A stretch of DNA of 20,000 nt from an uncultured virus (IMG/VR IMGVR_UViG_3300025009_000079) (IMGVR_UViG_3300025009_000079); one strand, 5' to 3'. Counted from the first letter of the stretch, positions 641 to 20,000 are shown. The notes: generated by a model from the letters alone, not told the origin. Made by a program: numbers and translations.

Positions 641-684
641 TTCCGTGGGCAACCTTTACCACAACCACGCCGAAAGGAGAAACC

Positions 685-903
685 ATGACCAGAACATGCA
701 GAGCTTGCGGTAAGACTATCGAGGTCGGATATGACTTGTACTACCAGATCGACCTGTCATTCAAAGATCCATACGGGATGAATATCTTTACTGGGGCTTC
801 GGACGAAAATCACGCCGCATTCTGCTCTACTGAGGCTTGCGCCAAGAAAGCGGCCGACTTCCTGAAACACTTGCAAGGGATCTTTATTCACACCTCCGTG
901 TAG
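685..903 (+). CDS. small Cys-rich (putative Zn-binding) protein
   Basis: AAAGGAG RBS before ATG 685; CRAC...CSTEAC. Confidence 0.7.
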   Translation: MTRTCRACGKTIEVGYDLYYQIDLSFKDPYGMNIFTGASDENHAAFCSTEACAKKAADFLKHLQGIFIHTSV

Positions 904-1020
904 ATGTGTATGCGTGAGTGTGACTGTGTGTTTATGGGGAAGGTGCGAGTGCGTGTGGGTGTGTGGGGATGTTAAGGCGATTTGGATGGCGAACCTCTCG
1001 GCTGGACGTCCCGCTACTCT

Positions 1021-1060
1021 CACCCCCATGAGTCACCATGGGTCTCCATGCCTCCCCATG
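1021..1060. repeat. four 10-bp-phased CCATG repeats
   Basis: CCATG at 1026, 1036, 1046 and 1056. Confidence 0.85.
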
Positions 1061-1282
1061 GTGGCAAGCTACCACCTGGTGAGGATGAAACGCCGATGGC
1101 ATGCCGACCAGGTGGAGTGGTAGCGTCAGATCTCTCCAGCCAATGCCGACCTGGAGTGTTGGGGATAGCGTTGGGGGCGCAAGCATGGCTAAACCGATAC
1201 CATCGCTAACCTGCCGACAACGCTACGCAAATAGGCAACCAGTGCTATAATGACCCTTGGGTTGTTAACCCAAAGACCGGCC

Positions 1283-1843
1283 TCATTCATCCCCAACGTC
1301 GATAACCCCGTCCTCTTCATCACTGGGGAGCTCCGGCTCGGCCTGAAACTGGATACCGGCCTGGCCAAGAGCCGCGGCTACGTTGGGAAGGAGGACTGCG
1401 GCCGATCCTGCTTGGAATATGTTTTGAATTAGTACAGACGGCGCGTGAGAGGGAAAGATCCCCATAGTCTGTCCAATCCGCCCCTCCTTCTTGTCGGCAA
1501 GAGCAAGGATGGCTTTCTCGCTCTCGCTAAGCTCCTCGATCCTGGAAGCCTTGCCGGTTTTGGGGTCGACGTGGACGCCCGGGGATGGTTCTGTCTCGAG
1601 GCGCTCGTAGATCTTGCCGGCTTTCTTGAGGCACTTAATATGGTTCCCAACCAGCAGCCCAGCCGATTGAATGATGATCTCTTGGCTTATCCGTTCGACC
1701 AGGGCCTTGACTTCGGACTTTTTGAGGCGGCTATTGACGGTTGGAGTGGAGCATCCCAAGGCTTTGGCTATGGCTCTCTGTGACTCTCCGGCAGCACTAA
1801 GGGCCACTATTTCAGCGGTGTTATTGAGTGGAGTTCTCCCCAT
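1283..1843 (-). CDS. HTH DNA-binding protein, probable terminase small subunit-like
   Basis: Start re-assigned to ATG 1843 (AAGGAG RBS); N-terminal HTH GESQRAIAKALGCSTPTVNSRL, helical middle, acidic tail; lies downstream of an HNH gene. No terL is seen in the window. Confidence 0.5.
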   Translation of the reverse strand: MGRTPLNNTAEIVALSAAGESQRAIAKALGCSTPTVNSRLKKSEVKALVERISQEIIIQSAGLLVGNHIKCLKKAGKIYERLETEPSPGVHVDPKTGKASRIEELSESEKAILALADKKEGRIGQTMGIFPSHAPSVLIQNIFQAGSAAVLLPNVAAALGQAGIQFQAEPELPSDEEDGVIDVGDE

Positions 1844-1890
1844 GGCATGGGCTCCTTGCTTCGACGTTAAAGAAAAGTGGAGAATATTGT

Positions 1891-2378: not shown

Positions 2379-2406
2379 TTGACAGCATTACAGCATGTGT
2401 TATCTT
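2379..2406 (+). promoter_or_regulatory. sigma70-type promoter for the plus-strand gene array
   Basis: TTGACA-16 bp-TATCTT with extended -10 TG; overlapped by an ACAGCAT direct repeat. Confidence 0.7.
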
Positions 2407-2576
2407 GTGCTCAACACGGTAAGAAAAGCCAAGCGGCACGCGAAAACAAGCCTCCGCACTCTTGGCTGGCTCTCTAACAACCGAAAAGCTCATCACCTGG
2501 CGGCAGACAAGCCCGGGTGTCCATCCTGCCGAGGCCGACCGGGGCCGTAGCAGTAGCGGGGTAGGGAAAGAAGAGA

Positions 2577-3277
2577 TTGTGTGTTTTGTTAAGGGCTCAG
2601 ACAAAAAGGAAGGGGAATCACATGAGCATCAATTACGATCCGGGCAGAGTGAACAGAGAGCAATGGCTTACAGACGCAATCACCATGCTTCGTCCCGATT
2701 TCAAGGCCATTGGGTTACAGATACCGGCAGAGGTAAGGGTGTCTTGTGGATGGAGCTCCAAGGGTGCGAAGGGTAAGGCCGGATTGTCGCGTATCGGGGA
2801 GTGCTGGTCTCCTGCATCCTCTTCGGCCGGCTACCATGAGATTTTCATCAGCCCCATAATTGACGATGCCTTGCTTGTGGCCGCAACCCTGGTGCATGAG
2901 CTTGTCCATGCTTGTATAGGCGTCGAGCAGAAACACGGTAAGGTATTTGGCAAGTTCGCCCGCAAGATTGGCCTCAAAGCTCCCATGAAGGCAACCACGG
3001 CGGGGCCGAAGCTAACCGAGCGGCTGACCGAGCTGGTCAGAATTAACGGCGAGTATCCACATGCGCGCATGGAAGCACTCACAAACGGCAAGAAAAAGCA
3101 GGCAACGAGGATGCTGAAAGTGTCTTGCCCAACTTGCGGCTACACGGTCAGAATCGCGGCCAAGTGGCTTGAGGAAGGGTTTCCGACTTGTCCTTGCGGT
3201 ACGGAAATGAAGGCGGATGAGGTCGAAAAATAGGGTGTTTACACGACTCATTTTCGAGCCCTGAATAAAGCACACAA
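2577..3277 (+). repeat. 22-bp imperfect inverted repeat (arms 2577-2598 and 3256-3277) enclosing the SprT-like gene
   Basis: TTGTGTGTTTTGTTAAGGGCTC / GAGCCCTGAATAAAGCACACAA: 19 Watson-Crick pairs, 2 G-U, 1 mismatch. Confidence 0.85.
2622..3233 (+). CDS. SprT-like zinc metalloprotease with C-terminal Zn ribbon
   Basis: HELVH (HExxH) plus downstream HGKVF; CPTC...CPC; AAGGAAGGGG RBS before ATG 2622. Confidence 0.85.
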   Translation: MSINYDPGRVNREQWLTDAITMLRPDFKAIGLQIPAEVRVSCGWSSKGAKGKAGLSRIGECWSPASSSAGYHEIFISPIIDDALLVAATLVHELVHACIGVEQKHGKVFGKFARKIGLKAPMKATTAGPKLTERLTELVRINGEYPHARMEALTNGKKKQATRMLKVSCPTCGYTVRIAAKWLEEGFPTCPCGTEMKADEVEK

Positions 3278-3282
3278 CGAGA

Positions 3283-3562
3283 ATCATCCTTTAGTGGATG
3301 CCATGGAGAAAGAGAGAACGAGCCATGATAACAGTGTACGCATTGAATAATGACCAGGGCAAACTCATGTTTGAATTCATTAACCGGGGAGAATATGCCG
3401 AGCCTCAGTATGCGGCACGGGCACGGGACAAGCACTCCGGGAAGTTTTACAAAGTGGAGACGGATCACCTTTCCGAAGTCCGGCGCTTGGCTGTTGACTT
3501 CGGGCACGACATTGACCTTTAGCGCCAACAAACCCCAGCCATGGCATGCACCGAAGGATGAT
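3283..3562 (+). repeat. 24-bp imperfect inverted repeat (arms 3283-3306 and 3539-3562) enclosing ORF 3325-3522
   Basis: ATCATCCTTTAGTGGATGCCATGG / CCATGGCATGCACCGAAGGATGAT: 21 Watson-Crick pairs, 1 G-U, 2 mismatches. Confidence 0.85.
3325..3522 (+). CDS. hypothetical protein (65 aa)
   Basis: Purine-rich leader before ATG 3325; fills the space between the inverted-repeat arms. Confidence 0.65.
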   Translation: MITVYALNNDQGKLMFEFINRGEYAEPQYAARARDKHSGKFYKVETDHLSEVRRLAVDFGHDIDL

Positions 3563-3595
3563 CTATAACCCACTAACAGCCAAAGGAGAGGGACA

Positions 3596-3796
3596 ATGAC
3601 ACACGCACCCAAGTTTTGGAGAGAGTATGTTCGGTCGGCATCTGATGGAGATATCGACCGAATGGCAAGATTTGATCATCTGATCCTTGACGGATTCGGT
3701 GGGGAGAGCGCTGCATACAAGGCAATGGAGGGCAGAATGTATGCTCACAAACACGCTCTCAAGGAAGCTCGTGAAGCCTGCAAGCGAATTGCCTAA
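3596..3796 (+). CDS. hypothetical protein (66 aa)
   Basis: AAAGGAGAGGG RBS. Confidence 0.7.
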   Translation: MTHAPKFWREYVRSASDGDIDRMARFDHLILDGFGGESAAYKAMEGRMYAHKHALKEAREACKRIA

Positions 3797-3925
3797 AACC
3801 GCAAAGGAGAGGACACTGGCGCAAGCCTTTCTGATTCTCCGCCTGCCCGCCCTGGCAACGGGGCGGATAGGAAAAGAGGCGAGAGGGCAGACGACAACAA
3901 GCAACCATATCGAAAGGGGGATCAT

Positions 3926-4078
3926 ATGGCAGAGTTGACACCACGAGACATCGAAATACTGAGAGGCTCCATTAACCGCGCAGTGAGGATTGATCTGGAC
4001 GAAGACGCGAAGATTAAGGAGCTGTTTCTCCTCTACCTGGTCACGGAGCCCATGGGTGAGTGCGTGAAAACTTCCTGA
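3926..4078 (+). CDS. hypothetical protein (50 aa, not in ORF track)
   Basis: GAAAGGGGG RBS; MAELTPRDIEILRG...; TGA lies inside the CCTGA of the next hairpin. Confidence 0.65.
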   Translation: MAELTPRDIEILRGSINRAVRIDLDEDAKIKELFLLYLVTEPMGECVKTS

Positions 4079-4164
4079 CTTGCTCCTGCCCATCGGCTCT
4101 GGTCGGTGGGCGGCATGGAAGCCATGAAGATGACGACAACCAACAACCAAAAGGAAGGGGAATT

Positions 4165-4704
4165 ATGAAACTCTTACAAAAAGTAACGGAATGGAAAGAA
4201 TACACGGAGCACTCTACACGTTGTAGAATGCGCGTAACTTACGGTTTCGATGTCGCTTTCGCCCAACGCTACAAACAAGCTCCATGCTTTAGCATCACTG
4301 CCGACATCGAGCGCAAGAGACGTACTAAGTGGCTCGAAGATTCTTTCGGGTGCTTGCATGACGAAATCCGCGCACATTTCCCGGAGTTGGCATCCCTCAT
4401 CAAATGGCATCTGGTAGCGTACCCATTCAAGCCTATGCACTATCAAGCGAATGCGCTTTATTGGCTCGAAATACACTTGGGATGCTCGAAGTATGGTAGT
4501 ACTCAAAGCAATGTCGATCCATTAGAAGCTTTCAAGAGTCAAATTGTTTTCGGGATACTGCCGGACGACAAGGAGCGCTTCGAGCAGGTATTAGTGGATT
4601 TTGTGGCAAGCAGGGATCTAAAAACGCCGCTTTATGCGTGGTTGGAATCGCGCATTCCACAAGCTCAAGTAGTGTTCGAGCGCGAAATGAAAGAGCTGGA
4701 TTGA
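4165..4704 (+). CDS. hypothetical phage protein (179 aa)
   Basis: AAGGAAGGGG RBS before ATG 4165; GCLHDEI...FPEL...KWHL...PMHY.ANA.YW. Confidence 0.8.
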   Translation: MKLLQKVTEWKEYTEHSTRCRMRVTYGFDVAFAQRYKQAPCFSITADIERKRRTKWLEDSFGCLHDEIRAHFPELASLIKWHLVAYPFKPMHYQANALYWLEIHLGCSKYGSTQSNVDPLEAFKSQIVFGILPDDKERFEQVLVDFVASRDLKTPLYAWLESRIPQAQVVFEREMKELD

Positions 4705-4827
4705 TTGAAATGAGTCGAGTCGAGTAACCTCCTAACTTTTTGCCTGCCGTAACCCTGCCCTGATGGGGTTGCTGGCAGGAATGGAGATATGCGGAGTAAA
4801 CGACAACTTAACGAGAGGGAGACGACG

Positions 4828-5193
4828 ATGAAAAAATCCGAATTGACAATCGTAACGGGAGAACGGCATCGGCTAACACCATACGCATGGGGAGACAGGT
4901 CCATCATGGTGGACGAGGATGCAGTGACCGAAAGCACCAGAGAGGCATTTGGTTTGGATGAAGCTCCCGACCCCGACTCCGATCAAAACGACAAACCGGA
5001 GTGGGTACAGGTTTATCGTGACGCCAACGGCCAGCACTACGCCGTGACCGATGCCGACGTGCGGCGCGATGCCTACCGGAAAACGGAAATCCCTGAATAT
5101 TGGGCGAAATGTGATGACCCAACGCAGCCCGATCAATACGGATCTGTTTGGGTGGCTCAGTCGTGGTCCTCTTTTGATGACGAAGAAGAATAA
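4828..5193 (+). CDS. acidic hypothetical protein (121 aa)
   Basis: GAGAGGGAG RBS before ATG 4828. Confidence 0.75.
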   Translation: MKKSELTIVTGERHRLTPYAWGDRSIMVDEDAVTESTREAFGLDEAPDPDSDQNDKPEWVQVYRDANGQHYAVTDADVRRDAYRKTEIPEYWAKCDDPTQPDQYGSVWVAQSWSSFDDEEE

Positions 5194-5289
5194 CGCAAAT
5201 CCTGATTTCCCCCTACGCTCTCTTAACCGGGAGCGCGGGGAGAAGGCAGGCGAAATTGACGGTAACCACAAACGAGAGGGAGAAAGGAA

Positions 5290-5547
5290 ATGAGCGAGTA
5301 TCAATTTCTATGCGGATGGGGAAAGCTAAAAAACCGGCGCGCCGTCGAGCGGATCGCCCGGAAACACGGCGCACAATACATACTCTACACCGAGCCGCAA
5401 TGCTCCTGCGGGTATGGGTGTCCATCCGGGGAATGCGAAAACAGTACGCGGCACTGGTTTGCGGCCGAAAACATGGGAACGACATTCGATGATTCCCGCG
5501 CATTCGCCGTTGAAACGGATCTCCGGGCGGCTGGAATTATTGAATGA
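5290..5547 (+). CDS. hypothetical protein with Cys cluster (85 aa)
   Basis: RBS within the repeat leader; CSCGYGCPSGEC. Confidence 0.75.
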   Translation: MSEYQFLCGWGKLKNRRAVERIARKHGAQYILYTEPQCSCGYGCPSGECENSTRHWFAAENMGTTFDDSRAFAVETDLRAAGIIE

Positions 5548-5640
5548 TTTCCTGATTTCATCGGCCCCGTCAGGGATGGCGGGGCTTATTGAAGGCAGGC
5601 GAGGCGGCATGATAACCACAAACGAGAGGGAGACGAGAAA

Positions 5641-5811
5641 ATGAAGATTAAATTGGCCCAATACGAATTGGAAATGGACCAGGACTGCAAAAACATCGCG
5701 GATGGTTGGGAGATATTCCCTTCGGCAGTCAACGAGCTCCACATTTCGCCCACTGATTTTACCCGTGCGGAGCAGACCACGGACGATAGCATCATCGTCC
5801 GTGAGGAGTAA
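5641..5811 (+). CDS. acidic hypothetical protein (56 aa, not in ORF track)
   Basis: GAGAGGGAG RBS; MKIKLAQYELEM...IIVREE*; fills the gap between two hairpin elements. Confidence 0.7.
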   Translation: MKIKLAQYELEMDQDCKNIADGWEIFPSAVNELHISPTDFTRAEQTTDDSIIVREE

Positions 5812-5904
5812 ATCCTGATTTCCCCCTACGCTCTCTTAACCGGGAGCGCGGGGAGAAGGCAGGCGAAGCAGACGACAACCACAAAAAGGAAGGGAGAACG
5901 ACCA

Positions 5905-6183
5905 ATGCAATTCTCAGCACTCGGCCTTCAAGCCGATCACGACGAAAACGGAATCCTGCGGGTCAACGCAGGCGGTGAAACCAATCACGAGATGCCCATG
6001 ACCGGCATCGACGCAAACGAACTGGCGCGGGACTGCTACTTTTATCTCCTCGAAGGGGACGTTCCCGAAGAATGGCTTGAGGCGCACAACATGGAGAGCA
6101 GGATCTCCGATGCGCTCCAGACCGAAAGTCGGGATGCGCTGGTGAAATTAGAGGAAGAGGTTCTCGACTTCTTCCGCGACTAA
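5905..6183 (+). CDS. acidic hypothetical protein (92 aa)
   Basis: GGAAGGGAG RBS; rich in D/E. Confidence 0.75.
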   Translation: MQFSALGLQADHDENGILRVNAGGETNHEMPMTGIDANELARDCYFYLLEGDVPEEWLEAHNMESRISDALQTESRDALVKLEEEVLDFFRD

Positions 6184-6191
6184 CCCACCGA

Positions 6192-6207
6192 GCCCGCTTC
6201 GGCGGGC
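6192..6207 (+). other. GC hairpin with UUCG tetraloop, no U-tract
   Basis: GCCCGC-TTCG-GCGGGC just 5' of the RHH gene RBS. Confidence 0.6.
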
Positions 6208-6221
6208 GGAAAGGATAACCC

Positions 6222-6410
6222 ATGGAAGAGAAAACCCAGGTAACCGTGAGACTCCCAGACAGTTTGGTTTGGGGGCTCAAAAAGGAAGTGGTCCGGCAAC
6301 GGATTAACCTCCAGACCGCCGTACAGCGCGCTATCGAGCAGTGGCTCGCTTCAACAGATGGAGAGAAAGACCGTTTCGAGGGTCTCCCAGTGCCCAGGGA
6401 GGGCATGTAG
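6222..6410 (+). CDS. ribbon-helix-helix (CopG/Arc/Omega-like) DNA-binding protein
   Basis: TQVTVRLPDSL beta-strand pattern followed by two helices (LKKEVVRQ; LQTAVQRAIEQWL). Confidence 0.7.
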   Translation: MEEKTQVTVRLPDSLVWGLKKEVVRQRINLQTAVQRAIEQWLASTDGEKDRFEGLPVPREGM

Positions 6411-6412
6411 CC

Positions 6413-6598
6413 ATGAACTTACTCGTAAATTCTCCAATAGAAGACCCAATGACACCGGCGTACATGCGGCAACTCATCCTTTCCGATGACGGTAAGCCGA
6501 GCGGTAGGGATCTGGCCTGCGTCTTGGATGTGACCCAGACCGTGATCCTGCCCGAGTGGGATAGGGTCGTGGTGGGTGGCGAAGTGGAAGAAGATTAG
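6413..6598 (+). CDS. hypothetical protein (61 aa)
   Basis: GGAGGG RBS, ATG 6413 just after the upstream stop. Confidence 0.6.
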   Translation: MNLLVNSPIEDPMTPAYMRQLILSDDGKPSGRDLACVLDVTQTVILPEWDRVVVGGEVEED

Positions 6599-6627
6599 GA
6601 CTAATCACACAAAAAGGAGAGGTAACT

Positions 6628-7056
6628 ATGACAATCGACCAGATGGTTGAAGAGTTTCAGTGTCCAGGCTGCGTATTGGGCAGTGACACGTCATGCGGAT
6701 CATACAACTACGACGCCAACGAGTTGCGGTGCATCTCGCACGTATGCGGGACAATGATCGGTTTCGGGAATACCGTTGCTCTCGGGCTCCCCAAGGGCTT
6801 CAACAAAACTGGATGGCACAAGGACGGCACGCCCCGAAACAAAATGTCCATCCGTTTGTACCCTGAGGGCCAGAAGCCGGCATGGGATCACCTCAACGTG
6901 CCTGTATGGGCCATGGAAGAGAACGGCTTTCTCTTCGTCCGCACATTTGCGCCTCGAATAGATGCCACATGGGTGGACGTGATCGAGGGCGGGAACATGG
7001 GAATGGTGCCAGAATCAACTATCGACGTCGGTGAGTTTGTTGATGAGATCGACTAA
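6628..7056 (+). CDS. hypothetical phage protein, Cys-rich N-terminus
   Basis: AAGGAGAGG RBS; CPGC...C...C..H. Confidence 0.8.
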   Translation: MTIDQMVEEFQCPGCVLGSDTSCGSYNYDANELRCISHVCGTMIGFGNTVALGLPKGFNKTGWHKDGTPRNKMSIRLYPEGQKPAWDHLNVPVWAMEENGFLFVRTFAPRIDATWVDVIEGGNMGMVPESTIDVGEFVDEID

Positions 7057-7081
7057 CCCAGATAAGGAGGGAAGCAAAACC

Positions 7082-7312
7082 ATGAATCCAGAGAAGCACG
7101 AAATCATAGAAGAACTGGCAGACGACTTCGGTAAATTCCGCAAGGATTATTCCGGGCGCGGAATGTACGGGGAAACGTGTGTTGGAATCGTGACGGGCGA
7201 CCCCACCGGATGTATCGAGGAGGCCGAAGCCCGTGGTGTGCGCGGGGCTGTCACCGACAGTATGGGACTGTCAATAATCGTGTACTGGCCGAAGGTGAAG
7301 TATCCCGATTAA
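7082..7312 (+). CDS. hypothetical phage protein (76 aa)
   Basis: AAGGAGG RBS; YSGRGMYGETCVGI...DSMGLSIIVYWP. Confidence 0.8.
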   Translation: MNPEKHEIIEELADDFGKFRKDYSGRGMYGETCVGIVTGDPTGCIEEAEARGVRGAVTDSMGLSIIVYWPKVKYPD

Positions 7313-7333
7313 CCCAAATAAGGAGGGCCTATC

Positions 7334-7687
7334 ATGACAGGATTTGATGTCTACCTCATCACCAGATGCGGGGCAATACAAGCGTTGTTCATTGTCGTGG
7401 CTATTGTAAGTGGGGTATTGGGAATCATCGCACTGGCGATAGAAGTCCTGGATGAGGACAATGAATTACCGCCACTAAAAAAATGGATAGCCGCTTCATG
7501 TATTATCTGTGGCATTTCGTCGGTGGGTGCTGTCTTGATGCCAGACACGAAAGAAGCCGCGGCAATCTACCTGCTGCCCAAAATAGCCAACAACGAACAG
7601 GTTGGCGCTATCCCGAGCAAAACATTAAGCGTCCTGGAAGGGAAGCTTGATGAGTGGATCAAAGATATGGGCAAGGATGACGATTAA
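7334..7687 (+). CDS. phage membrane protein (2 TM)
   Basis: Two hydrophobic segments followed by PDTKEAAAIYLLPKI. Confidence 0.8.
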   Translation: MTGFDVYLITRCGAIQALFIVVAIVSGVLGIIALAIEVLDEDNELPPLKKWIAASCIICGISSVGAVLMPDTKEAAAIYLLPKIANNEQVGAIPSKTLSVLEGKLDEWIKDMGKDDD

Positions 7688-7745
7688 CCCAAACAAGGAG
7701 GGCCATGGAGAATTTCTTGCAGTGATCCTGTGTTAGTTGATACAA

Positions 7746-7852
7746 GTGGATTTGATATTTTGTTGGGGGATCGGGACGCCGGTCAAGGTTCTTGCCCTTC
7801 TCGCAAGGACCACCCCAACATCCACAATCTTTCAACTGAGAAGGAGTTGAGA
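7746..7852 (+). ncRNA. C4/CI-antisense-like three-way-junction RNA plus RBS target hairpin
   Basis: P1 7761-7768/7813-7820 (plus 7746-7750/7821-7825); P2 7769-7784; P3 7787-7811 with loop CCTTCTC; target hairpin 7830-7852 with loop GAGAAGG. Confidence 0.65.
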
Positions 7853-8493
7853 TGTCAAACATTACCGTTAATGATCCCCGCTTCAAGCAGTATGGCCTAG
7901 TGCCAATTCGTTCAAATGTATGTGTATCAATTGACATTAATGCCACCAAATTGGTTTATGGTGATTGTGATAGGGAACAGAAGCATGTTCCTTGGTTCTC
8001 ATCAGATACGATGTCTCAAAGCAACGTACCTGGGATTGACTTTTATATAGAAAAGGAAGATGTTGACTTTCTGATTGCCAAATATCACAAGGACGTAACT
8101 GAGTCCATTAATGAAGTGCTAGATGAATGCGACAATTGCATCGAAACTGGATTACTAGAATACAGAAAGAAAAGAAAAAGAAATAGGACTTCTAAATTGA
8201 TATCTTCTGCCCTTTCTCCAACGAGACACGCAGGCCACATATATGTTATGCGGGCAGGCAACACATCCATGTTCAAAATTGGATACACAACAAGGTCTCC
8301 ACTGTCACGGATGCGTGATATTCAAACAAGTTGCCCGTATGAACTTGATCTCTATTCAGGGTTTGAAACCGATGACTGTCTTGTCTGTGAAGCTAGGATG
8401 CACGGAATTCTGTCTGAATATAGGACCATTGGAGAATGGTTTGATGCCGACACTGAAACAATAGATTCAGCTATTGATTCCATGTTCCGATAG
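7852..8493 (+). CDS. GIY-YIG superfamily (T5orf172/MUG113-like) domain protein
   Basis: GHIYVM...FKIGYTT...RMRDIQTSCP...EARMH...GEWF; visibly more AT-rich than its neighbours. Confidence 0.85.
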   Translation: MSNITVNDPRFKQYGLVPIRSNVCVSIDINATKLVYGDCDREQKHVPWFSSDTMSQSNVPGIDFYIEKEDVDFLIAKYHKDVTESINEVLDECDNCIETGLLEYRKKRKRNRTSKLISSALSPTRHAGHIYVMRAGNTSMFKIGYTTRSPLSRMRDIQTSCPYELDLYSGFETDDCLVCEARMHGILSEYRTIGEWFDADTETIDSAIDSMFR

Positions 8494-8616: not shown

Positions 8617-8832
8617 TTATGCACTGGTTTTCTCTCGCTTAACCCCGCAAAACGGGCAATAAGCCGCCACAATCGTGCGGGCTCGGCCCCGTTTCTTCTT
8701 CTCAACCTTTTCGGATGAGATCACGATATCCACCCACATTTGGGACATATCCTCAGATAAGCTGAGGGCGGTCCCGACTCGTGTATTGTATTGCGCCAAC
8801 TGAGCATCCACCTTCTCTAAACACTCACACAT
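8617..8832 (-). CDS. small Zn-binding phage protein
   Basis: MCEC...YCPFCG; GAGGGGAG RBS. Confidence 0.75.
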   Translation of the reverse strand: MCECLEKVDAQLAQYNTRVGTALSLSEDMSQMWVDIVISSEKVEKKKRGRARTIVAAYCPFCGVKREKTSA

Positions 8833-9038: not shown

Positions 9039-9526
9039 CACCAATCCCCCAAAATACCCACCAAAGCATTCCCGTCCTTTCTCCGCAGAATACAAAACCC
9101 GTGGCGAATCCACTCGTCCCGTTCATCATCGGTCATATCGCGCTCCAATTTGTGGATTCGGCGCATCTGGTGGGTACGCTTGCTAATAGCTAATTGTCTG
9201 GCTGGGTCCGGCCTCGGCATCTCGCACAATGGACATGCGTCTTGATCCGGCCCCATGTGGATTCCACAGCGGGAGCACGGGTGCAAAGATTGGTCGATAA
9301 TTCCTCTGAGCGTGGTCGGCTCCACGTCGCCCGGTGCATTAAAATCCTTTCGACAGTCCCGGCAGTACCCCGAGTCGTCAACCTGCCTGTTTTTACCGCA
9401 CCGTGGGCACATTGCAAACGTCATGGCGTATGATGGTTTGTCGATTTTGGCTGTTCTCTCATACTGGATTCGGCCCGGCTCCGCGTCGCTCGGTGCGTTG
9501 AGTTCTTTTTGATCCTGACACATCAA
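9038..9526 (-). CDS. Zn-ribbon hypothetical protein with internal duplication
   Basis: Two CxxC pairs; NAPSDAEP and NAPGDVEP repeats; GAGGAGG RBS. Confidence 0.65.
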   Translation of the reverse strand: MMCQDQKELNAPSDAEPGRIQYERTAKIDKPSYAMTFAMCPRCGKNRQVDDSGYCRDCRKDFNAPGDVEPTTLRGIIDQSLHPCSRCGIHMGPDQDACPLCEMPRPDPARQLAISKRTHQMRRIHKLERDMTDDERDEWIRHGFCILRRKDGNALVGILGDW

Positions 9527-10773: not shown

Positions 10774-11352
10774 CTACTCCTTGCTCTCAATTTGGAGCCT
10801 GTCAGCAATTCCAACTTTCACCACTTCATCCCCCGTGATTTGCCCATACTCATCCCCAAGATATGAAATCATGTTTCGATTGGAGTTGTTCGCTCTGTGG
10901 ATTCCAGTTAAGAGGCCCGGTGACTTACTCATTGACGCCGGGAGTCCGTTATAGATTTTCATGAAGTCCTTTCGCTTCCACTCCAGATCATCCACGAGCC
11001 ATTCACCGGATTGAATCCATCCACCCATCAACTCGATGGTTCGCGCTATTCTGCCATCCTGAAACTCGACGGTTCGATACACTCCATGCCGACCCATCGC
11101 CTCCATATATTGTTGCCACGCTAAAAGAGCGGGATCTCCCACTTCTCCACGCATCAGTTCGACAAGCTCCCCTGATTGGGGAAATCCAAAGAACTTACGA
11201 TGAAAAGGAATTTCAAGAGCTTTCACTGCGTCATCAAAAGACAATTCTTTAAGCAACGCCTCCCGATACATTGCGGCAAAGAACGTGCTCGGCTCCTTCC
11301 CCCACATCTCACATAAGGCGCAAAACCGCTGATCTAGGGCGTCAAGCTCCAT
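10774..11352 (-). CDS. DUF6475-like replication accessory (putative helicase loader/inhibitor)
   Basis: GVYRTVEFQDGRIARTIELMGGW...RKDFMKIY motif; directly downstream of the initiator. Confidence 0.65.
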   Translation of the reverse strand: MELDALDQRFCALCEMWGKEPSTFFAAMYREALLKELSFDDAVKALEIPFHRKFFGFPQSGELVELMRGEVGDPALLAWQQYMEAMGRHGVYRTVEFQDGRIARTIELMGGWIQSGEWLVDDLEWKRKDFMKIYNGLPASMSKSPGLLTGIHRANNSNRNMISYLGDEYGQITGDEVVKVGIADRLQIESKE

Positions 11353-12217
11353 CGCGATTCTCCCTCAGTTTTTTGGCCTCCAAGCATGCCCTAATGGCTG
11401 CATTTCCACAATCACTCATTGTATCAACATATCCAGTTGGCTTGTGTCGTGAATAGTTGCCATTTAATACCTTGCTCATGCTCTCTTTTTTTACCAACCA
11501 TCCAAGGTTTGCAACCCACTTGCGGTCATTTTGTCCTAAAAGAAATGGCATGTTGGAAACGTCCAAAAAGAACTCTTTCCACCAATTAAGATCCCGTCGG
11601 TTCTTGTCCTCGTCCCATCTGGCTTTCAGATTTTTAGTGTTTACGTCGCCCCACACCCTAACCGATGGCAATGAAGGCAATAGAGCGTGGTAAAGTTCGA
11701 TGATTTTCTTGTGTGGGCAACCTGACCTTGACGCCGCTGAACGGCAACTTCCCGGACTATACAGATTCTCATGGTCTTCATGGTTTTCATGGTCTTCATG
11801 GTCCTTTGTGTTACTTGGTTGTTCCTTGGTTGTTACTTGGTTGTTACTTGGTTGTCCTGTTGGTTGTTCTTGTGAATCCGATAACTCTGCATAACTGCGC
11901 CAATTTATTACAGTAATTATGCTGTAATGGATGTTATTTTGGATGTTAACATTTCCTATCTTTTCTAATTTCAAGAGCCTCTTGTACGTCGATATTGGTT
12001 TCTGCTTCAAAATGTGTGCAACTGTATTACGCCCGAAAAGTAATTGCCCGACATCCAAAAAAACTTCCGTTTCTGCTCTCCCAGTAGATACATGAACCCA
12101 CCCTGGTTTGCTTCTGGCATGAAGGAGAATGTAGGACCAGAGGTGCCACAATGCGGCATCCCTGAAAACTTGGCTATCTCTGCTTTTCCTCCACAGCGGA
12201 ACAAAACCGCGATCCAT
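11342..12217 (-). CDS. phage replication initiator (lambda O-analogous)
   Basis: N-terminal GFVPLWRKS..LWSYILLHA winged-helix-like domain, low-complexity repeat linker, C-terminal FLLGQNDRKWVANLGWL..KVLNGNY. Confidence 0.8.
   Translation of the reverse strand: MDRGFVPLWRKSRDSQVFRDAALWHLWSYILLHARSKPGWVHVSTGRAETEVFLDVGQLLFGRNTVAHILKQKPISTYKRLLKLEKIGNVNIQNNIHYSIITVINWRSYAELSDSQEQPTGQPSNNQVTTKEQPSNTKDHEDHENHEDHENLYSPGSCRSAASRSGCPHKKIIELYHALLPSLPSVRVWGDVNTKNLKARWDEDKNRRDLNWWKEFFLDVSNMPFLLGQNDRKWVANLGWLVKKESMSKVLNGNYSRHKPTGYVDTMSDCGNAAIRACLEAKKLRENRDGA
11769..11972. other. putative phage replication origin (iterons plus AT-rich tract) inside the initiator gene
   Basis: 4x 9-bp TCATGGTYY (11769-11804); 4x 11-bp TGTTMCTTGGT (11809-11852) plus a degenerate copy; AT-rich tract at about 11900-11972. 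Confidence 0.7.
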
Positions 12218-14403: not shown

Positions 14404-15093
14404 TTATTTTGGTGAGATGAACACGGGTTTTCCGGTCGCCCGCGCTACCTCGCGTCGGAAATACTCCTCGTCTGAATTCGAGTCGGAGAGATGAAGGAGA
14501 TGCACTTCGCGCACCCGGCGAAGGTCGGTCACCCGCAGGAATTCGAGAGCAGTTTCGAGCGACATATGCGATTCAACGAGCCTCCTCTTCACAGCCGGGT
14601 CAATGTTGGGGTCAATCGTGGATTCCGACCAATTCACTTCTATGGCGATGAGATTCAGTCCTCGAAATTTCGGCCGGATGTAATAAGAATCTGTACAGAA
14701 TAGTAATTTTTCCACGCCGTCACTCACCACAAAGCCAAGTGACCCCAGAGCGTCATGCTCAGTCGGAAACGCCATGCACCGCCACGGCGCAGGTCCGAAA
14801 ACCGTGTAAGGCTCCACAACATGAAGCGAGTGACCAGAGAGCCCCAGGGCTTCCGCCGTGCCTGATGAGCAGTAGAGAGCAATCCCTAGTGCCAGGAGGT
14901 CAGCGGCGGCTTTGGAGTGATCAGAATGAAAATGGGAAAGCAGACACCCACGGAACGTTGAAAGCTCAAAATTTAGCGCGCGCTTGAGCTTGGCAATCGG
15001 GAGCCCACACTCGATCATGAGTGGGGCTCCATTTGGCGTGTCGAGCCGGTAGAGATTGGCGCTCGAGGAGCTATTTATTGCGGTGAATTTCAT
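14404..15093 (-). CDS. MBL-fold metallo-hydrolase (phage YycJ-like putative nuclease)
   Basis: SSSSAN...SHFHSDH (HxHxDH), HDA, TD, E-x-N, SH, HLS; start re-assigned to ATG 15093. Confidence 0.9.
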   Translation of the reverse strand: MKFTAINSSSSANLYRLDTPNGAPLMIECGLPIAKLKRALNFELSTFRGCLLSHFHSDHSKAAADLLALGIALYCSSGTAEALGLSGHSLHVVEPYTVFGPAPWRCMAFPTEHDALGSLGFVVSDGVEKLLFCTDSYYIRPKFRGLNLIAIEVNWSESTIDPNIDPAVKRRLVESHMSLETALEFLRVTDLRRVREVHLLHLSDSNSDEEYFRREVARATGKPVFISPK

Positions 15094-15253
15094 ACGACAC
15101 GACTTCTCCGGTTTCCTCGTCCACCTGAACATCGAGCGCCACTTCCTCAAAATACCGAAAATAGTTTGCTGCTTTTTCGGACGGCCCAGCTTCACGCGCT
15201 ATTTCATACATGGTCTCGGGCGAAGCGTAGGCGTAAATCCGGATCGTTTTCAT
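15071..15253 (-). CDS. hypothetical protein (60 aa)
   Basis: GGGGGA RBS before ATG 15253; lies between recT and the MBL gene. Confidence 0.6.
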   Translation of the reverse strand: MKTIRIYAYASPETMYEIAREAGPSEKAANYFRYFEEVALDVQVDEETGEVVSYEIHRNK

Positions 15254-15264
15254 GTATCCCCCCA

Positions 15265-16128
15265 CTAATACCCAGGGCCACTATTCGGCGGTTCATTTGG
15301 GTCAGGAGCATCCTCTTTCGTTTCGGCCGGCTTCGGATCTTCCTTTTCCGCAGCCTTCTCGGTCTCCGGATCATCGGAAATATCTATGACGTCCCCTTGG
15401 TTCGCCTCATCTCGAATGGTGTCATCGGCCCGCTCTTCCGGAGTCCTGTCGTCGGCATCCGACATGAAGGCGTGAACCATCTCCACCGAGAGAATGCCAT
15501 ATTTTCGGAGGAGTCCCATCAACACGGTCTTGGTGGACATTTCATCCACGTTGGTATGCCATGCCGACCTTGGATTAGAGAAACCCGGAACATACCGCTT
15601 GGCATGAGCAAGAACTTCTTCCTTGGTCCAATAATCGGCCTTTTCAAATCCATTCAGGAGCCGAAAGTAGGCGAAGTATCCTATCGCGGTATCGGACTTT
15701 CTGGCCCCGGTAAGATCAACCTCCCCCGTCATTTTGAAGAACCCTTTGTACTCGCCTTCAAATACCGGCCCGGCATTTATGAAGCGGTATTGTGCCGTTC
15801 GCAGCGCCAGTTGTACATAGCCTTTCCAGCCCACCTGAAAAGCCGGCTTGGGCACTCCCTTTTCTTTGCGTGCGATAATCCAAGCAAAACCGAGCTGTTT
15901 GTTGATGGGAAGTTTGAGTGTCGCGGCTTTGAGTGCTTCCATGACCACGGCTTGCGGCTGACATTCCTGGAGGCTCTTGTCGTTCGTGAAAATGTCAATG
16001 AGCGAAGCCACAAACAATGGAGCACTCTCTTTCATGGAATTCTGGAATTGCTCCTGGACGCTCTGGCTCGAGATTATTTCCTTGAACTTGTCAATGGGTC
16101 GCTTTTGTATCGCGTTTTGCTCTGACAT
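15265..16128 (-). CDS. recT: RecT/Redbeta-family single-strand annealing recombinase
   Basis: AATLKLPINKQLGFAWI...FQVGWKGYVQLALRT...W..N.DEM..KT. Confidence 0.93.
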   Translation of the reverse strand: MSEQNAIQKRPIDKFKEIISSQSVQEQFQNSMKESAPLFVASLIDIFTNDKSLQECQPQAVVMEALKAATLKLPINKQLGFAWIIARKEKGVPKPAFQVGWKGYVQLALRTAQYRFINAGPVFEGEYKGFFKMTGEVDLTGARKSDTAIGYFAYFRLLNGFEKADYWTKEEVLAHAKRYVPGFSNPRSAWHTNVDEMSTKTVLMGLLRKYGILSVEMVHAFMSDADDRTPEERADDTIRDEANQGDVIDISDDPETEKAAEKEDPKPAETKEDAPDPNEPPNSGPGY

Positions 16129-18075
16129 TTATTCCTCCACAACTGTTAATTGTTCATGGCCCACGCTCACGATGAGCTTGATGACCTGGCCCTTGCTGGC
16201 CGGCACATTAATAATGCTCTCGCATCCGTCTATCCACCGAGGCAACCACACCCCGCAGTGCTCGCTCAACACTTCGGCAATTTCGCACCCGGAAGCGATC
16301 CGCGCCGCCTCGTTGAGATTCCGGTATGGCACCCCGCCCCCGTCCATGGCCTCACACATCTCCGTTACGGCTCCATTGATCTGCACGTCGAAAAGCTTGA
16401 ACCGCACAGTGGGGAATCGAGAATTGATCCGATCCGTGAGCATGGAAACCTTGGCGCGGACGAAAAGATCCGTCAGAAAGAGCCCGGCCTCGATTTGCTC
16501 ATATTCCGCGGCGAGCTTCTTTTGCTGTGCCGTCAATTCGCGCACCCTGGCGTCAGCCTGATAGTTGGCCTTGATCGACGCCATGGTGCCTTGCTTGGCT
16601 TCGATCTGAGCTTCCAGATCCTTAATCTTGGCGTCCAGCTCGGCCACGGCGTCATGACTGCCGAGCCGGAGCTCGGATATGGCGCTCTCCAGGATCTCCT
16701 TGCCGGCCAATAGCCGCTCGCGGGCGTTGAGAGCTTCGGATGATGTCTGCACGTTAAGGGGCGTAGCTTTCAGGTGGTCAATCTCGGCTTGAGCCTTGGC
16801 GATGGTCTCGCTTGCCGCTGCGATGGATTTTTCAAGCTCCGCGGATTCAGCTTTGAGCCGCTCGACTTCCGCTTTCAGCGCCTTTCCTTTTTCCTGATTT
16901 TCGGTCAATGTCCTGGACTTGACTTCGTTGAAATGTTCCAGAGCCTTGACCGAGTCCGTTCTGATCTGATTTTCCGGAAGAGCTCCACAGTTAGGGCACG
17001 GGGAATTTTCTCTGTGTGGCTCAAATTGCATGTGAAAAACTTCCGACCATCGTTTGCGCAGCCGGGACAACTCCGTTTCGTGCTGCTCGATGGCGCGCGG
17101 CTGACTGACGAGCACCAGCTCCTTGCCGCGCTTCTCGTTCGTGGCGGTCAAGATGATATTTTCCTGATCCGCGATCTTCTTCCGCTGGGCCGCCGCCACA
17201 AGTTCGACAATCTGAGCCTCGTTGTTGGCAAGAGCTTGCATCTGCCCCTCAATCTCGGTCAATTTCTTCGTCTTGGCCGCGATCTCCCCGCCGTTCTCCG
17301 TGCGCCGCTTTTCGTCCTGGACGGCTTTCAATTCACCCTGGAGAATCTTGATTTCATCCTCTGTGCCGACTTTTGTGAACTCCCCAACGTCGGCCTTGCT
17401 CCGGGTCGCCTCGTCAATCCTGGCAGGGATCTCGGTCAGTTCCTTGTTGATGCGCGCCTTGTCGCCGGCCGCGACCTTCCGCCAGTCCTCGATTGATTTC
17501 TTGCCGACGATTGCCGGGAGCTTGACGAGTTGAGTATCGGAAGCGATCACGTCCGCGTCCGATACGTCCCCGCAGACACCCAGGAGGATTCCGCGGCGGT
17601 CTTGCCAGGCCAGGACCTCGTTGAAGTGGCGGATGTTGGACAAGATCTTGAACGTTCGGTCGTCCGTGATAGAGGCGATGAAATCCTGAAACTCGCGCTG
17701 CGACTTGGGCACTCCGTCGACGTAATGATCTGTTACATGGCCTGTCAGTTCAGCCGATGCCGAGCCGCGCTTCTTGGTGTACTTCTCGGCGTAGACCTTC
17801 TTGAGCTCCATTGTCCCGCCGTCGAACTCGAACACGCCCTCGACGCAATGCTCGATGGAATGCATCGGCTCACCGTCCAGGATCGTTTTAAGCTCAAAGT
17901 TCCCGGCCTGTTGACCCAAGCTGTCCTTAGCGGTCAATAGCCAGGCGTAGGCGTCAAATAGTGTGCTTTTACCTGTTGCATTCTGGCCAAGTACGGACAC
18001 AGACTTGCCGGCGGGGCTAAATGTGAAATCCTTGATGCCCTTGAAGTTTTGAAGCCTAAGAGATTGGAGTTTCAT
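16129..18075 (-). CDS. Rad50/SbcC-like ABC ATPase with coiled coil
   Basis: LQNFKGI, Walker A GQNATGKST, central CPNC zinc hook, degenerate signature LNEAA and Walker B WIDGCES. Confidence 0.9.
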   Translation of the reverse strand: MKLQSLRLQNFKGIKDFTFSPAGKSVSVLGQNATGKSTLFDAYAWLLTAKDSLGQQAGNFELKTILDGEPMHSIEHCVEGVFEFDGGTMELKKVYAEKYTKKRGSASAELTGHVTDHYVDGVPKSQREFQDFIASITDDRTFKILSNIRHFNEVLAWQDRRGILLGVCGDVSDADVIASDTQLVKLPAIVGKKSIEDWRKVAAGDKARINKELTEIPARIDEATRSKADVGEFTKVGTEDEIKILQGELKAVQDEKRRTENGGEIAAKTKKLTEIEGQMQALANNEAQIVELVAAAQRKKIADQENIILTATNEKRGKELVLVSQPRAIEQHETELSRLRKRWSEVFHMQFEPHRENSPCPNCGALPENQIRTDSVKALEHFNEVKSRTLTENQEKGKALKAEVERLKAESAELEKSIAAASETIAKAQAEIDHLKATPLNVQTSSEALNARERLLAGKEILESAISELRLGSHDAVAELDAKIKDLEAQIEAKQGTMASIKANYQADARVRELTAQQKKLAAEYEQIEAGLFLTDLFVRAKVSMLTDRINSRFPTVRFKLFDVQINGAVTEMCEAMDGGGVPYRNLNEAARIASGCEIAEVLSEHCGVWLPRWIDGCESIINVPASKGQVIKLIVSVGHEQLTVVEE

Positions 18076-19287: not shown

Positions 19288-20000
19288 GTTCCGTCCTCCT
19301 CCCCGATGACCTCCACCTTGCGGCATCGCACCTTCGTAATGTCATGCGGGTACACGACAAAATCATCGGGATGCACGAGGCACTTTAGTGTTTTGCCACA
19401 ATTGTAGCTTTGAGCAAGCGATTTGGTGGGAGAAAGATGAAGCCCACCGCCGCATTGTCGCTCATGATTCGCATCCCAGTCAGGGCACTCCACGGTGCCC
19501 TCATACTTGATAGTACCACTCCAGAAATCTGTCATGTCATCTTTGACGGATTTATAGAGCATCATCCTCCCATTGTCGCAGTGTTGTATGTTCTTGGAAT
19601 AGATGTCCATAAAAGACTGCTTGTCGTGTGTTGCCACCGGAACATTCATGCAAGTTGCCGTTGCATCTTGTTCGTTGGGAATTAGCTTACAGCCAATCCC
19701 TATGGCTACGGCAAACTGTTTTAATTTGATCTTTATTTCCGAAAACGCCCGAACCACACAGTTCTCCCATGCCACCACGGAAGAGTTCCCCCTTGCCACC
19801 ACGGAAGAGTTCCCCCTTGCCACCACGGAAGAGTTCCCCCTTGCCTCCACGGAAGAGTTCCCCCTTGCCACCACGGAAGAGTTCCCCCTTGCCTCCACGG
19901 AAGAGTTCTCCCATGCGTCCACGGAAGAGTTCTCCCTTGCCTCCACGGAAGAGTTCCCCCTTGCCTCCACGGAAGAGTTCTCCCTTGCCTCCACGGAAGA
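19284..20000 (-). CDS. octapeptide-repeat phage protein with DUF7666-like C-terminal domain (5' partial)
   Basis: (V-x-A-R/W-G/E-N-S-S)n, then LYK...CGGGLH...KVRCRKVEV. Confidence 0.8.
   Translation of the reverse strand, partial: SSVEARENSSVEARGNSSVEARENSSVDAWENSSVEARGNSSVVARGNSSVEARGNSSVVARGNSSVVARGNSSVVAWENCVVRAFSEIKIKLKQFAVAIGIGCKLIPNEQDATATCMNVPVATHDKQSFMDIYSKNIQHCDNGRMMLYKSVKDDMTDFWSGTIKYEGTVECPDWDANHERQCGGGLHLSPTKSLAQSYNCGKTLKCLVHPDDFVVYPHDITKVRCRKVEVIGEEDGT
19761..20000. repeat. 24-bp coding tandem repeat, at least 10 units
   Basis: GTTCYCCCWTGCCWCCACGGAAGA repeated to the window end. Confidence 0.95.

Follow-up and report, generated by a model that had tools for sequence, protein, structure and literature searches.

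Six intergenic spacers between small genes of an uncultured groundwater virus (IMG/VR IMGVR_UViG_3300025009_000079) carry copies of a real, conserved and portable RNA module that represents a promoter-less variant of the promoter early stem-loop (PeSL) idea. The spacers lie at positions 3797–5904 of the 20,000-nucleotide stretch of DNA that was analysed (hereafter the window), and every one of them contains a hairpin, then a U-poor A/C-rich leader of ~40 nt and, at its end, a strong Shine–Dalgarno (SD) sequence. The best explanation, to which a probability of roughly 0.5 is assigned, is that the six spacers are promoter-less PeSL-like linkers that punctuate an early transcript, through RNA processing or stability, and that also serve as homologous crossover points. 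Literature searches found no description of promoter-less phage intergenic repeats of this kind.

Anatomy of the intergenic modules

The six spacers (86–129 nt) separate seven genes on the + strand, whereas the intergenic gaps downstream of position 6222 measure just 2–38 nt. The genes, the spacers and the hairpins as delimited in this analysis are as follows; type A denotes the best-conserved form of the module.

3596–3796, + strand: gene upstream of module 1.
3797–3925, + strand: module 1; hairpin 3831–3890 with outer stem CUG-A-UUCUC.../...GAG-GG-CAG and a GCAA loop; leader 3891–3925 with GACGACAAC and a GGGGG SD sequence.
3926–4078, + strand: cargo gene, 50 amino acids (aa), isoelectric point (pI) 4.7; open reading frame (ORF) with an SD sequence; no Pfam or PHROG family.
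4079–4164, + strand: module 2; hairpin 4086–4126, comprising a hairpin at 4086–4113 and a mini-hairpin at 4114–4126; leader 4127–4164 (GACGACAACC...AAAAGGAAGGGG).
4165–4704, + strand: cargo gene, 179 aa; matches phrog_17696, function unknown (E 1.2e-7); no Pfam family.
4705–4827, + strand: module 3; hairpin 4729–4786 with core GCCUGCC...GGCAGG; leader 4787–4827 (AACGACAAC...AACGAGAGGGAGACGA).
4828–5193, + strand: cargo gene, 121 aa, pI 4.3, net charge ~−16; no Pfam, PHROG or protein-atlas match.
5194–5289, + strand: module 4 (type A); hairpin 5201–5250 (CCUG-A-UUUC...GAAG-G-CAGG); leader 5251–5289.
5290–5547, + strand: cargo gene, 85 aa, 5 Cys; no family (Pfam, PHROGs).
5548–5640, + strand: module 5 (type A base, different apical stem, GGGA loop); hairpin 5551–5599; leader 5600–5640.
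5641–5811, + strand: cargo gene, 56 aa, pI 4.3; no family (Pfam, PHROGs).
5812–5904, + strand: module 6 (type A); hairpin 5814–5863; leader 5864–5904; 77–84% identity to relatives.
5905–6183, + strand: cargo gene, 92 aa, pI 4.2, net charge ~−16; no family (Pfam, PHROGs).

The hairpins are 41–60 nt in length and contain 15–22 stacked pairs interrupted by internal mismatches. Their folding energies (ΔG) of −24.4 to −30.8 kcal/mol correspond to z-scores of −3.4 to −4.8 relative to 200 mononucleotide shuffles per hairpin (−3.39, −3.52, −3.68 and −4.8 for modules 1, 2, 3 and 5, respectively). The z-scores of entire spacers are weaker (−1.46 to −2.18), and the spacer at 3523–3597, which has no hairpin, scores +0.41. 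The basal stem CCUG-A-UUUC/GAAG-G-CAGG is exact in three of the six copies (5201, 5551 and 5814). The hairpins of modules 4 and 6 are identical at 50 of 50 nt; module 5 shares their basal 9 + 9 nt, and its upper stem is unrelated in sequence yet paired. An earlier first-pass annotation, made by a model from the sequence alone, had described six spacers with a hairpin, an A/C-rich leader and a ribosome-binding site, a basal stem that is exact in three copies and degenerate in the others, and upper stems that differ in sequence yet stay paired, all of which is borne out here. Its mention of GNRA loops and many G–U pairs holds only in part: GCAA and GGGA loops are present, but in just two of the six hairpins, and with two to three G–U pairs in each the word 'many' is generous.

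The pooled leaders (235 nt) consist of 45% A, 29% G, 20% C and 7% T, compared with 24% T in the window as a whole, and the leader of module 6 contains no U at all. The motif GACGACAAC is found exactly at 3890, 4132 and 5871 and with a single mismatch at 4799. The distance from the end of the hairpin to the ATG is 35–41 nt in all six window modules and 35–44 nt in ten of the 14 modules overall. The distance between the upstream stop codon and the hairpin, in contrast, is 2–34 nt in the window modules (2–7 nt in four of the six) and −5 to 34 nt across the modules overall. This combination of a near-constant distance to the start codon with a variable distance to the stop codon indicates that the hairpin is part of the leader of the downstream gene.

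When spacers 1 and 2 are folded whole, the minimum-energy structures (3831–3925 and 4083–4160) have the 5′ arm at the base of the hairpin paired with the downstream SD sequence instead. The pairing segment is a pyrimidine-rich CUCC/CUCCU resembling an anti-SD sequence. This fold may be an alternative structure or a mere effect of composition.

Covariance model and strand asymmetry

A covariance model, as envisaged in the first-pass annotation, was built from seven type-A copies (the CCUGAUUUC...GAAGGCAGG type), three from the window and four from its relatives, and was used to search 81 kb with filters off. It recovers all six spacers on the + strand with E-values from 2.4e-27 to 0.031; the scores are 101.3 bits for module 4, 98.7 for module 6, 78.8 for module 5, 26.0 for module 2 (E 2.6e-5), 22.6 for module 1 (E 2.5e-4) and 15.4 for module 3 (E 0.031). 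A comparison of the 20 kb with Rfam 15 on both strands produced no match at E ≤ 1, and the module thus belongs to no family described there, a point on which the earlier reading also stands. When the 18 hits are aligned by fitting to the model, pairing holds in 94.4% of cells, compared with 47–59% when the partners are slid, and both sides have changed in 12 of 19 pairs, compared with 0–3 when the partners are slid.

Among the hairpins that depart from the canonical form, five of six distinct sequences (window modules 1, 2, 3 and 5; 8320 and 10296 in G001, one of four related phages G001–G004) fold better as the sense strand than as the reverse complement by 6.2–8.6 kcal/mol, and a sixth (G001 7253) does so by 4.0 kcal/mol. 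The respective energies in the window are −30.8 versus −22.6 kcal/mol for module 1, −24.4 versus −16.1 for module 2, −26.3 versus −17.8 for module 3 and −28.1 versus −19.7 for module 5. The advantage of the sense strand arises from its G–U pairs. Taken together, strand asymmetry, covariation, start-codon spacing and leader composition speak more for an RNA element of the sense strand than for a site in double-stranded DNA.

Transcription signals

No promoter-like site is present in 3797–5904; relaxed −35/−10 matching gives at best 6–8 of 12 positions per spacer, and the best sites are at non-homologous positions. A + strand terminator-like site is likewise absent from 3797–5904 and no U-tract stands behind any of the six hairpins, in agreement with the earlier statement that these are not intrinsic terminators. 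The hairpins might instead be transcription attenuators or pause sites that lack a U-tract, similar to the stem-loops of PeSLs, which would grade expression and shield downstream genes from read-through. Such a role would suit stable GC-rich hairpins placed right behind stop codons, as in the four modules with a distance of 2–7 nt, and PeSL stem-loops are reported as terminators or attenuators in the available part of PMC2839356. However, all six hairpins are followed by leaders with very little U, although the same scan does detect a hairpin with a T-rich run elsewhere (8677–8692), and the position of the hairpin follows the downstream ATG rather than the upstream stop codon. Moreover, no promoter lies behind the hairpins to restart transcription, so that efficient termination would silence the remainder of the operon. 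Attenuation is therefore considered quite unlikely.

Related phages and exchange of cargo genes

The pattern CCTGATTTC-N20–50-GAAGGCAGG matched 29 loci in viral_contigs, four of which are related to the window. A longer pattern matched 52 loci in metagenome_contigs, again with four related, of which three duplicate records from the viral set and the fourth, L086, is a 92,963 bp contig resembling G002. A scan with the type-B hairpin pattern found G001 only, and a protein scan with 1283–1894 (− strand) found G001 and one weak locus. A blastn comparison of window positions 3500–6500 with 50,697 phage records gave no matches. The type-A module shows 77–84% identity over ~90–110 nt in G001–G004 and L086; the identity of module 4 to the relatives is 74–83%.

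In each of the five phages the type-A module is flanked by unrelated genes. When 61 proteins from the five operons were compared all-against-all (E ≤ 1e-3), 13 pairs matched, none of them involving a window gene in 3596–6183, and the 43 proteins called for the four relatives include no homologue of the 85-aa gene at 5290–5547. Window positions 646–1844 and 9306–9523 are colinear with G001, and between these only a short stretch at ~6178–6285 matches. A cargo gene that is 89% identical in G001 (7772–8101) and G004 (7679–8005) lies beside different modules in the two phages. G001 has a hairpin-module array of its own, and its homologue of window module 2 has a different apical part (L037, reverse complement, 8320–8420); G002, G003 and G004 each carry a single type-A copy shortly behind an AT-rich promoter region. 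Cargo thus varies between conserved modules, as the first-pass annotation had proposed, and gene order is not invariant in the relatives.

A selfish palindromic repeat, of the miniature inverted-repeat transposable element (MITE) or repetitive extragenic palindromic (REP) kind, that has spread in intergenic spacers and is tolerated rather than used could also produce near-identical copies in one genome (modules 4 and 6 are 93% identical over 76 nt) and place a palindromic element between unrelated genes in several phages. The constant orientation and the fixed distance to the start codon speak against this, as does the fact that a functional gene has its SD sequence and leader within the module. 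All matches of the covariance model at E ≤ 1 in the four whole relative records are in the same operon, save one weak match (E 0.73). No transposase or HUH/RAYT-type family was found by Pfam among the submitted window and G004 ORFs. The pattern matched 43 loci in species-representative bacterial genomes (genome_contigs), none of them related, which provides no clue to the host and indicates no REP-like family. A selfish repeat is accordingly very unlikely.

Contigs from four DNA runs containing 7–40% of the sampled words were compared with the window. Foreign contigs match the module and diverge precisely at its edges, before 5813/5814 and 5201/5182 and behind 5871/5884, with an additional edge at 3825; they show at least two different left flanks and at least two different right flanks. 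A contig joint in runs X5/X6 connects 3602 to 3825 and so joins a gene's start codon with module 1 at its 5′ edge, and a further joint connects 3599 to 5182. In G001-like contigs the gene at 5905–6183 is replaced, with a joint from 5883 to 6184.

The modules are also mosaic in composition. Modules 4 and 6 have the same hairpin and different leaders, while modules 3 and 5 have different hairpins and an identical 16-nt leader and SD segment (4810–4825 and 5621–5636); modules 4 and 5 agree at 89% over 28 nt of leader, and the AAAAGGAAGGG leader is present at 2601, 4146 and 5881. In window module 2, in G003 and in G004, an unrelated upstream gene ends with the TGA of the module's CCTGA motif as its stop codon; in window module 2 this is the gene at 3926–4078. 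The mosaic of hairpin and leader types and the shared CCTGA stops would fit crossovers inside the modules, and the comparative evidence for an exchange of cargo is good.

Integron attC hairpins were among the analogues named in the first-pass annotation; on this analogy the hairpins would be folded single-stranded DNA sites for site-specific recombination that capture or excise cassettes. The ORF–hairpin–ORF plan, the conserved stem base with variable apex and unpaired bases, and the turnover of cargo are all reminiscent of such a system. However, no paired RYYYAAC...GTTRRRY cores occur on either strand of the whole window, and GTTRRRY is found in none of the six spacers. No recombinase or integrase family, including tyrosine recombinases, was found by Pfam among 24 window ORFs or 65 G004 ORFs of ≥100 aa, smaller or divergent proteins being outside this scope. 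The breakpoints, in addition, are scattered over the hairpin edge, the leader and the SD sequence, with no single crossover point. The analogy fails on these points, and a role as attC-like sites is hardly credible.

A seventh linker of a different type follows the array.

6184–6221, + strand: 6-bp UUCG hairpin (GAGCCCGC-UUCG-GCGGGC), as folded, abutting the SD sequence GGAAAGGA.

G001 has this linker at 97% identity over 32 nt and G003 has a similar one, and the genes behind it in these two phages give no BLASTP alignment to window positions 6222–6410. From these comparisons the UUCG hairpin appears to be a second linker type with the same behaviour as the six modules.

Cargo genes

Six of the seven array genes have no Pfam or PHROG family, the exception belonging to a PHROG of unknown function, and protein-atlas look-ups provided nothing usable; for the 179-aa protein they gave unnamed viral clusters only, by structure, with a template-modelling (TM) score of 0.58. 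The AF2 single-sequence model of the 121-aa protein has a predicted local distance difference test (pLDDT) value of 60.9. That of the 92-aa protein (pLDDT 68) produced no Foldseek matches at E ≤ 0.001 in the PDB or BFVD, so that the structural comparison suggested in the first-pass annotation yielded nothing. Its description of several cargo proteins as small and acidic is correct for four of the seven (pI 4.2–4.7), which have no known function, whereas the role in anti-defence or host takeover that it proposed for them remains a guess.

Proposed role of the modules

In the preferred reading, the hairpin would form in the sense-strand RNA of a polycistronic early transcript and would be placed relative to the downstream start codon, close to the upstream edge of the 30S footprint. 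This footprint extends from −35 to +19, and the hairpin ends near −36 to −42, at its upstream edge. The hairpin could be an endonuclease processing site, either RNase III-like or for a nuclease that reads the conserved basal stem, or alternatively a barrier to exonucleases or at the 5′ end. RNase E prefers U, and the U-poor leader should be a poor substrate for this enzyme. Each cargo cistron would gain a stable message and a standard translation start, and unrelated small genes could be inserted, deleted or replaced at the modules while expression of the operon remains unbroken. The modules could act as homologous crossover points because ~100 nt of stop codon, hairpin, leader and SD sequence are common to the spacers and to the related phages.

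Several observations weigh against this reading or limit the evidence for it. The hairpin was considered as a device that keeps the SD sequence open, but this was rejected since the predicted accessibility with the native hairpin is no greater than with shuffled hairpin segments in all six modules. The canonical type-A hairpin is symmetric (−27.3 versus −27.4 kcal/mol across the strands), so that the argument from strand asymmetry leaves out the best-conserved copy. The covariation alignment is fitted to the model, takes six of its 18 rows from the reverse strands of the same palindromes and has few independent lineages; the sample as a whole comprises only about five phages. The eight sequencing runs that contain the region are all DNA, with no RNA run among them. 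Spacers that lack these hairpins likewise show gene-sized changes (joints from 6597 to 7067 with 13 nt intervening and from 3307 to 3581 with 32 nt intervening), indicating that the hairpin is not needed for shuffling. Finally, the basal stem, its A–G mismatch and the 3′ GSGA are invariant in all seven type-A copies, and since RNase III does not need an invariant base a sequence-specific protein fits better.

One form that such a protein might take is a dedicated endoribonuclease of the phage or its host for which the CCUG-A-UUUC/GAAG-G-CAGG-CGA base is the site. Cutting in the manner of Cas6/Csy4 at every module, it would release monocistronic ORFan mRNAs with a ~40-nt U-free leader poor in RNase E sites. 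The module would then be a plug-and-play insulator and one example of a widespread undescribed class, and the lineage would trade unrelated genes while keeping expression constant. This proposal is tentative, with the balance of probability against it.

Alternatively, the hairpins might be operators for a sequence-specific RNA-binding protein, such as a repressor similar to T4 RegA or an RNA-phage coat protein, or sites for an endoribonuclease that reads the basal stem. The invariance of the 9 + 9 nt base with its A–G mismatch and 3′ GSGA extends over five phages and persists in module 5, where the apical stem has been replaced; the distance to the start codon is fixed, and generic structure alone does not explain the conservation of the stem sequence. 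However, the bases of modules 1–3 are degenerate (15–26 bits compared with 79–101 bits for the covariance model), so that a single protein must tolerate much variation, and the hairpin ends ~25 nt upstream of the SD sequence without overlapping it. With Pfam and PHROGs, the operon yielded no family of RNA-binding proteins or nucleases, and Pfam detects no RNase III family among the 65 G004 ORFs of ≥100 aa. Homogenization by recombination could also account for the identical base. On balance, this alternative is regarded as unlikely.

Genomic context

The window is phage DNA. Features outside the array, with the database that supports each protein assignment, are the following.

1891–2226, − strand: HNH endonuclease (PHROGs).
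2379–2406, + strand: candidate sigma-70-like promoter TTGACA-16-TATCTT preceded by TG; ranks first among the + strand promoter-like sites of the window, with 10 of 12 consensus matches only.
2577–3233, + strand: weak SprT-like match (Pfam).
7852–8493, + strand: T5orf172/MUG113 endonuclease-like protein (Pfam).
8677–8692, + strand: terminator-like hairpin followed by a T-rich run, near the turn of the strand skew.
14404–15195, − strand: metallo-beta-lactamase-fold protein (Pfam).
15265–16128, − strand: RecT (Pfam).
16129–18075, − strand: SMC-like ATPase (Pfam).

The GC and AT skews are mostly positive from ~2400 to 8400 and negative thereafter. These skews, together with the promoter-like site at 2379–2406 and the terminator-like site at 8677–8692, suggest that 2622–8493 is a single rightward operon of ~15 small genes, which would be transcribed from one promoter by the host RNA polymerase. 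From its layout the array would belong to the early region of the phage. The source of the window is best explained as a tailed phage of roughly 75–90 kb with a sigma-70-type operon.

The candidate promoter is separated from the first gene of the operon (2622) by a GC-rich 5′ untranslated region of ~200 nt (2410–2620). At the other end of the operon, the T5orf172/MUG113 (GIY-YIG-like) gene at 7852–8493 is a low-GC island (0.41) behind a gap of 164 nt and looks like a homing-endonuclease insertion.

Among the relatives, G004 is 89,432 bp in length and 100% complete, with a portal and adaptor that resemble those of phage SU10. Its segment 9001–22731 (L101) encodes a 4576-aa polyvalent protein with an Sbno-type helicase (AAA_34/Helicase_C_4), ART-PolyVal, inorganic pyrophosphatase (InPase), ParB_N and LPD38. 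G004 also encodes ROS/MucR, DUF1643, PAPS-reductase-like and radical-SAM proteins.

Two further interpretations in terms of promoters were tried and rejected. Hairpin promoters for a virion RNA polymerase of the N4 type would call for such an enzyme, but the 4576-aa ORF of G004 is the polyvalent protein and Pfam detects no RNA polymerase family among the 65 ORFs. The leader does not qualify as a sigma-54-like or T7-like promoter either; by eye, the spacing is wrong and the motif is not conserved.

Tandem repeats are found at two other places in the window. At 19760–20000 there are at least ten copies of a 24-nt unit, AGTTCCCCCTTGCCTCCACGGAAG (94% matches), in an array that starts at ~19712 and continues past the end of the window; it probably encodes an eight-residue protein repeat, since it is located inside − strand ORFs. 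At 11769–11872, adjoining arrays of period 9 (TCATGGTCT, 3.9 copies) and period 11 (TGTTACTTGGT, 4.3 copies) form a low-GC stretch (0.40–0.43) within the − strand ORF 11342–12217. The period-11 array is iteron-like and may mark a replication origin.

Significance and comparison with known systems

Small, fast-evolving genes stand in rows in phage genomes, and many of them are thought to be host-takeover or anti-defence factors. Swapping of such genes without wrecking their expression is documented mainly for the PeSLs of T4-type phages, which carry their own promoter. A promoter-less linker that acts at the RNA level inside one operon would suggest a second way of exchanging genes in modular fashion, one that is post-transcriptional. 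Should the hairpin signal processing or stability and have a defined protein partner, insulated multi-gene operons could be built with it as a compact natural part, and variable accessory genes in uncultured phages could be recognized by it.

The array resembles integron cassettes: small ORFs that lack promoters stand in series, and behind each comes an imperfect hairpin whose base is conserved and whose apex varies. It differs from attC sites in that it has no R or L cores, no integrase among the scanned ORFs and breakpoints at no fixed position.

The early genes of phage T7 are reportedly separated by RNase III processing sites, as described by Dunn and Studier. Like the hairpins here, the T7 hairpins are said to be intercistronic and imperfect, to span about two helical turns and to have mismatches inside. 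They reportedly stand in a long early transcript made by the host RNA polymerase, such as the one proposed for the window, a few tens of nucleotides ahead of the following start codon and with neither promoter nor terminator. Unlike the modules, they reportedly do not make up a repeated family in which the basal stem is conserved, nor are they known to be places at which cassettes are exchanged.

The start-associated sequences (SAS) and extended start-associated sequences (ESAS) of Cluster K mycobacteriophages include a 13-bp motif, GGGATAGGAGCCC, 3–7 bp before the start codon (PMC3203893, available part). As described there, they share with the modules a conserved motif that overlaps the ribosome-binding site, an upstream inverted repeat and a variable spacer, as well as a single orientation and repetition before non-structural genes of different families; the function of neither system is known. 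The leaders here carry GAGGGAG or GGAAGGG with other flanks and do not match GGGATAGGAGCCC. According to the part of PMC3203893 available, the departures from symmetry in the ESAS arms speak against RNA pairing and favour DNA-binding proteins, whereas in the modules pairing is kept across unrelated stem sequences and the sense strand is favoured.

The closest match in role is the PeSL. As far as the available parts of PMC2839356 and PMC4122927 describe them, the PeSLs of T4-type phages have a strong sigma-70-like early promoter and an AT-rich upstream part, so that each PeSL cassette is a transcription unit of its own, and recombination between elements gives mini-circles. Relative to that description, the modules are promoter-less, GC-rich and U-poor and are all located within one operon; nor is the phage T4-like, its relative G004 having SU10-type portal and adaptor matches. 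The likenesses concern the plan and behaviour of the element. In both cases, following the available part of PMC2839356, an element of ~100 bp with a stem-loop reaches from the stop codon to the SD sequence or ATG, as is found in all six spacers, and the stem-loop contains G–T/G–U pairs and is repeated between small ORFans in a plastic region. The same source also describes elements that are conserved between phages while the flanking genes differ, with crossovers at various inner points, which is the behaviour of the modules here.

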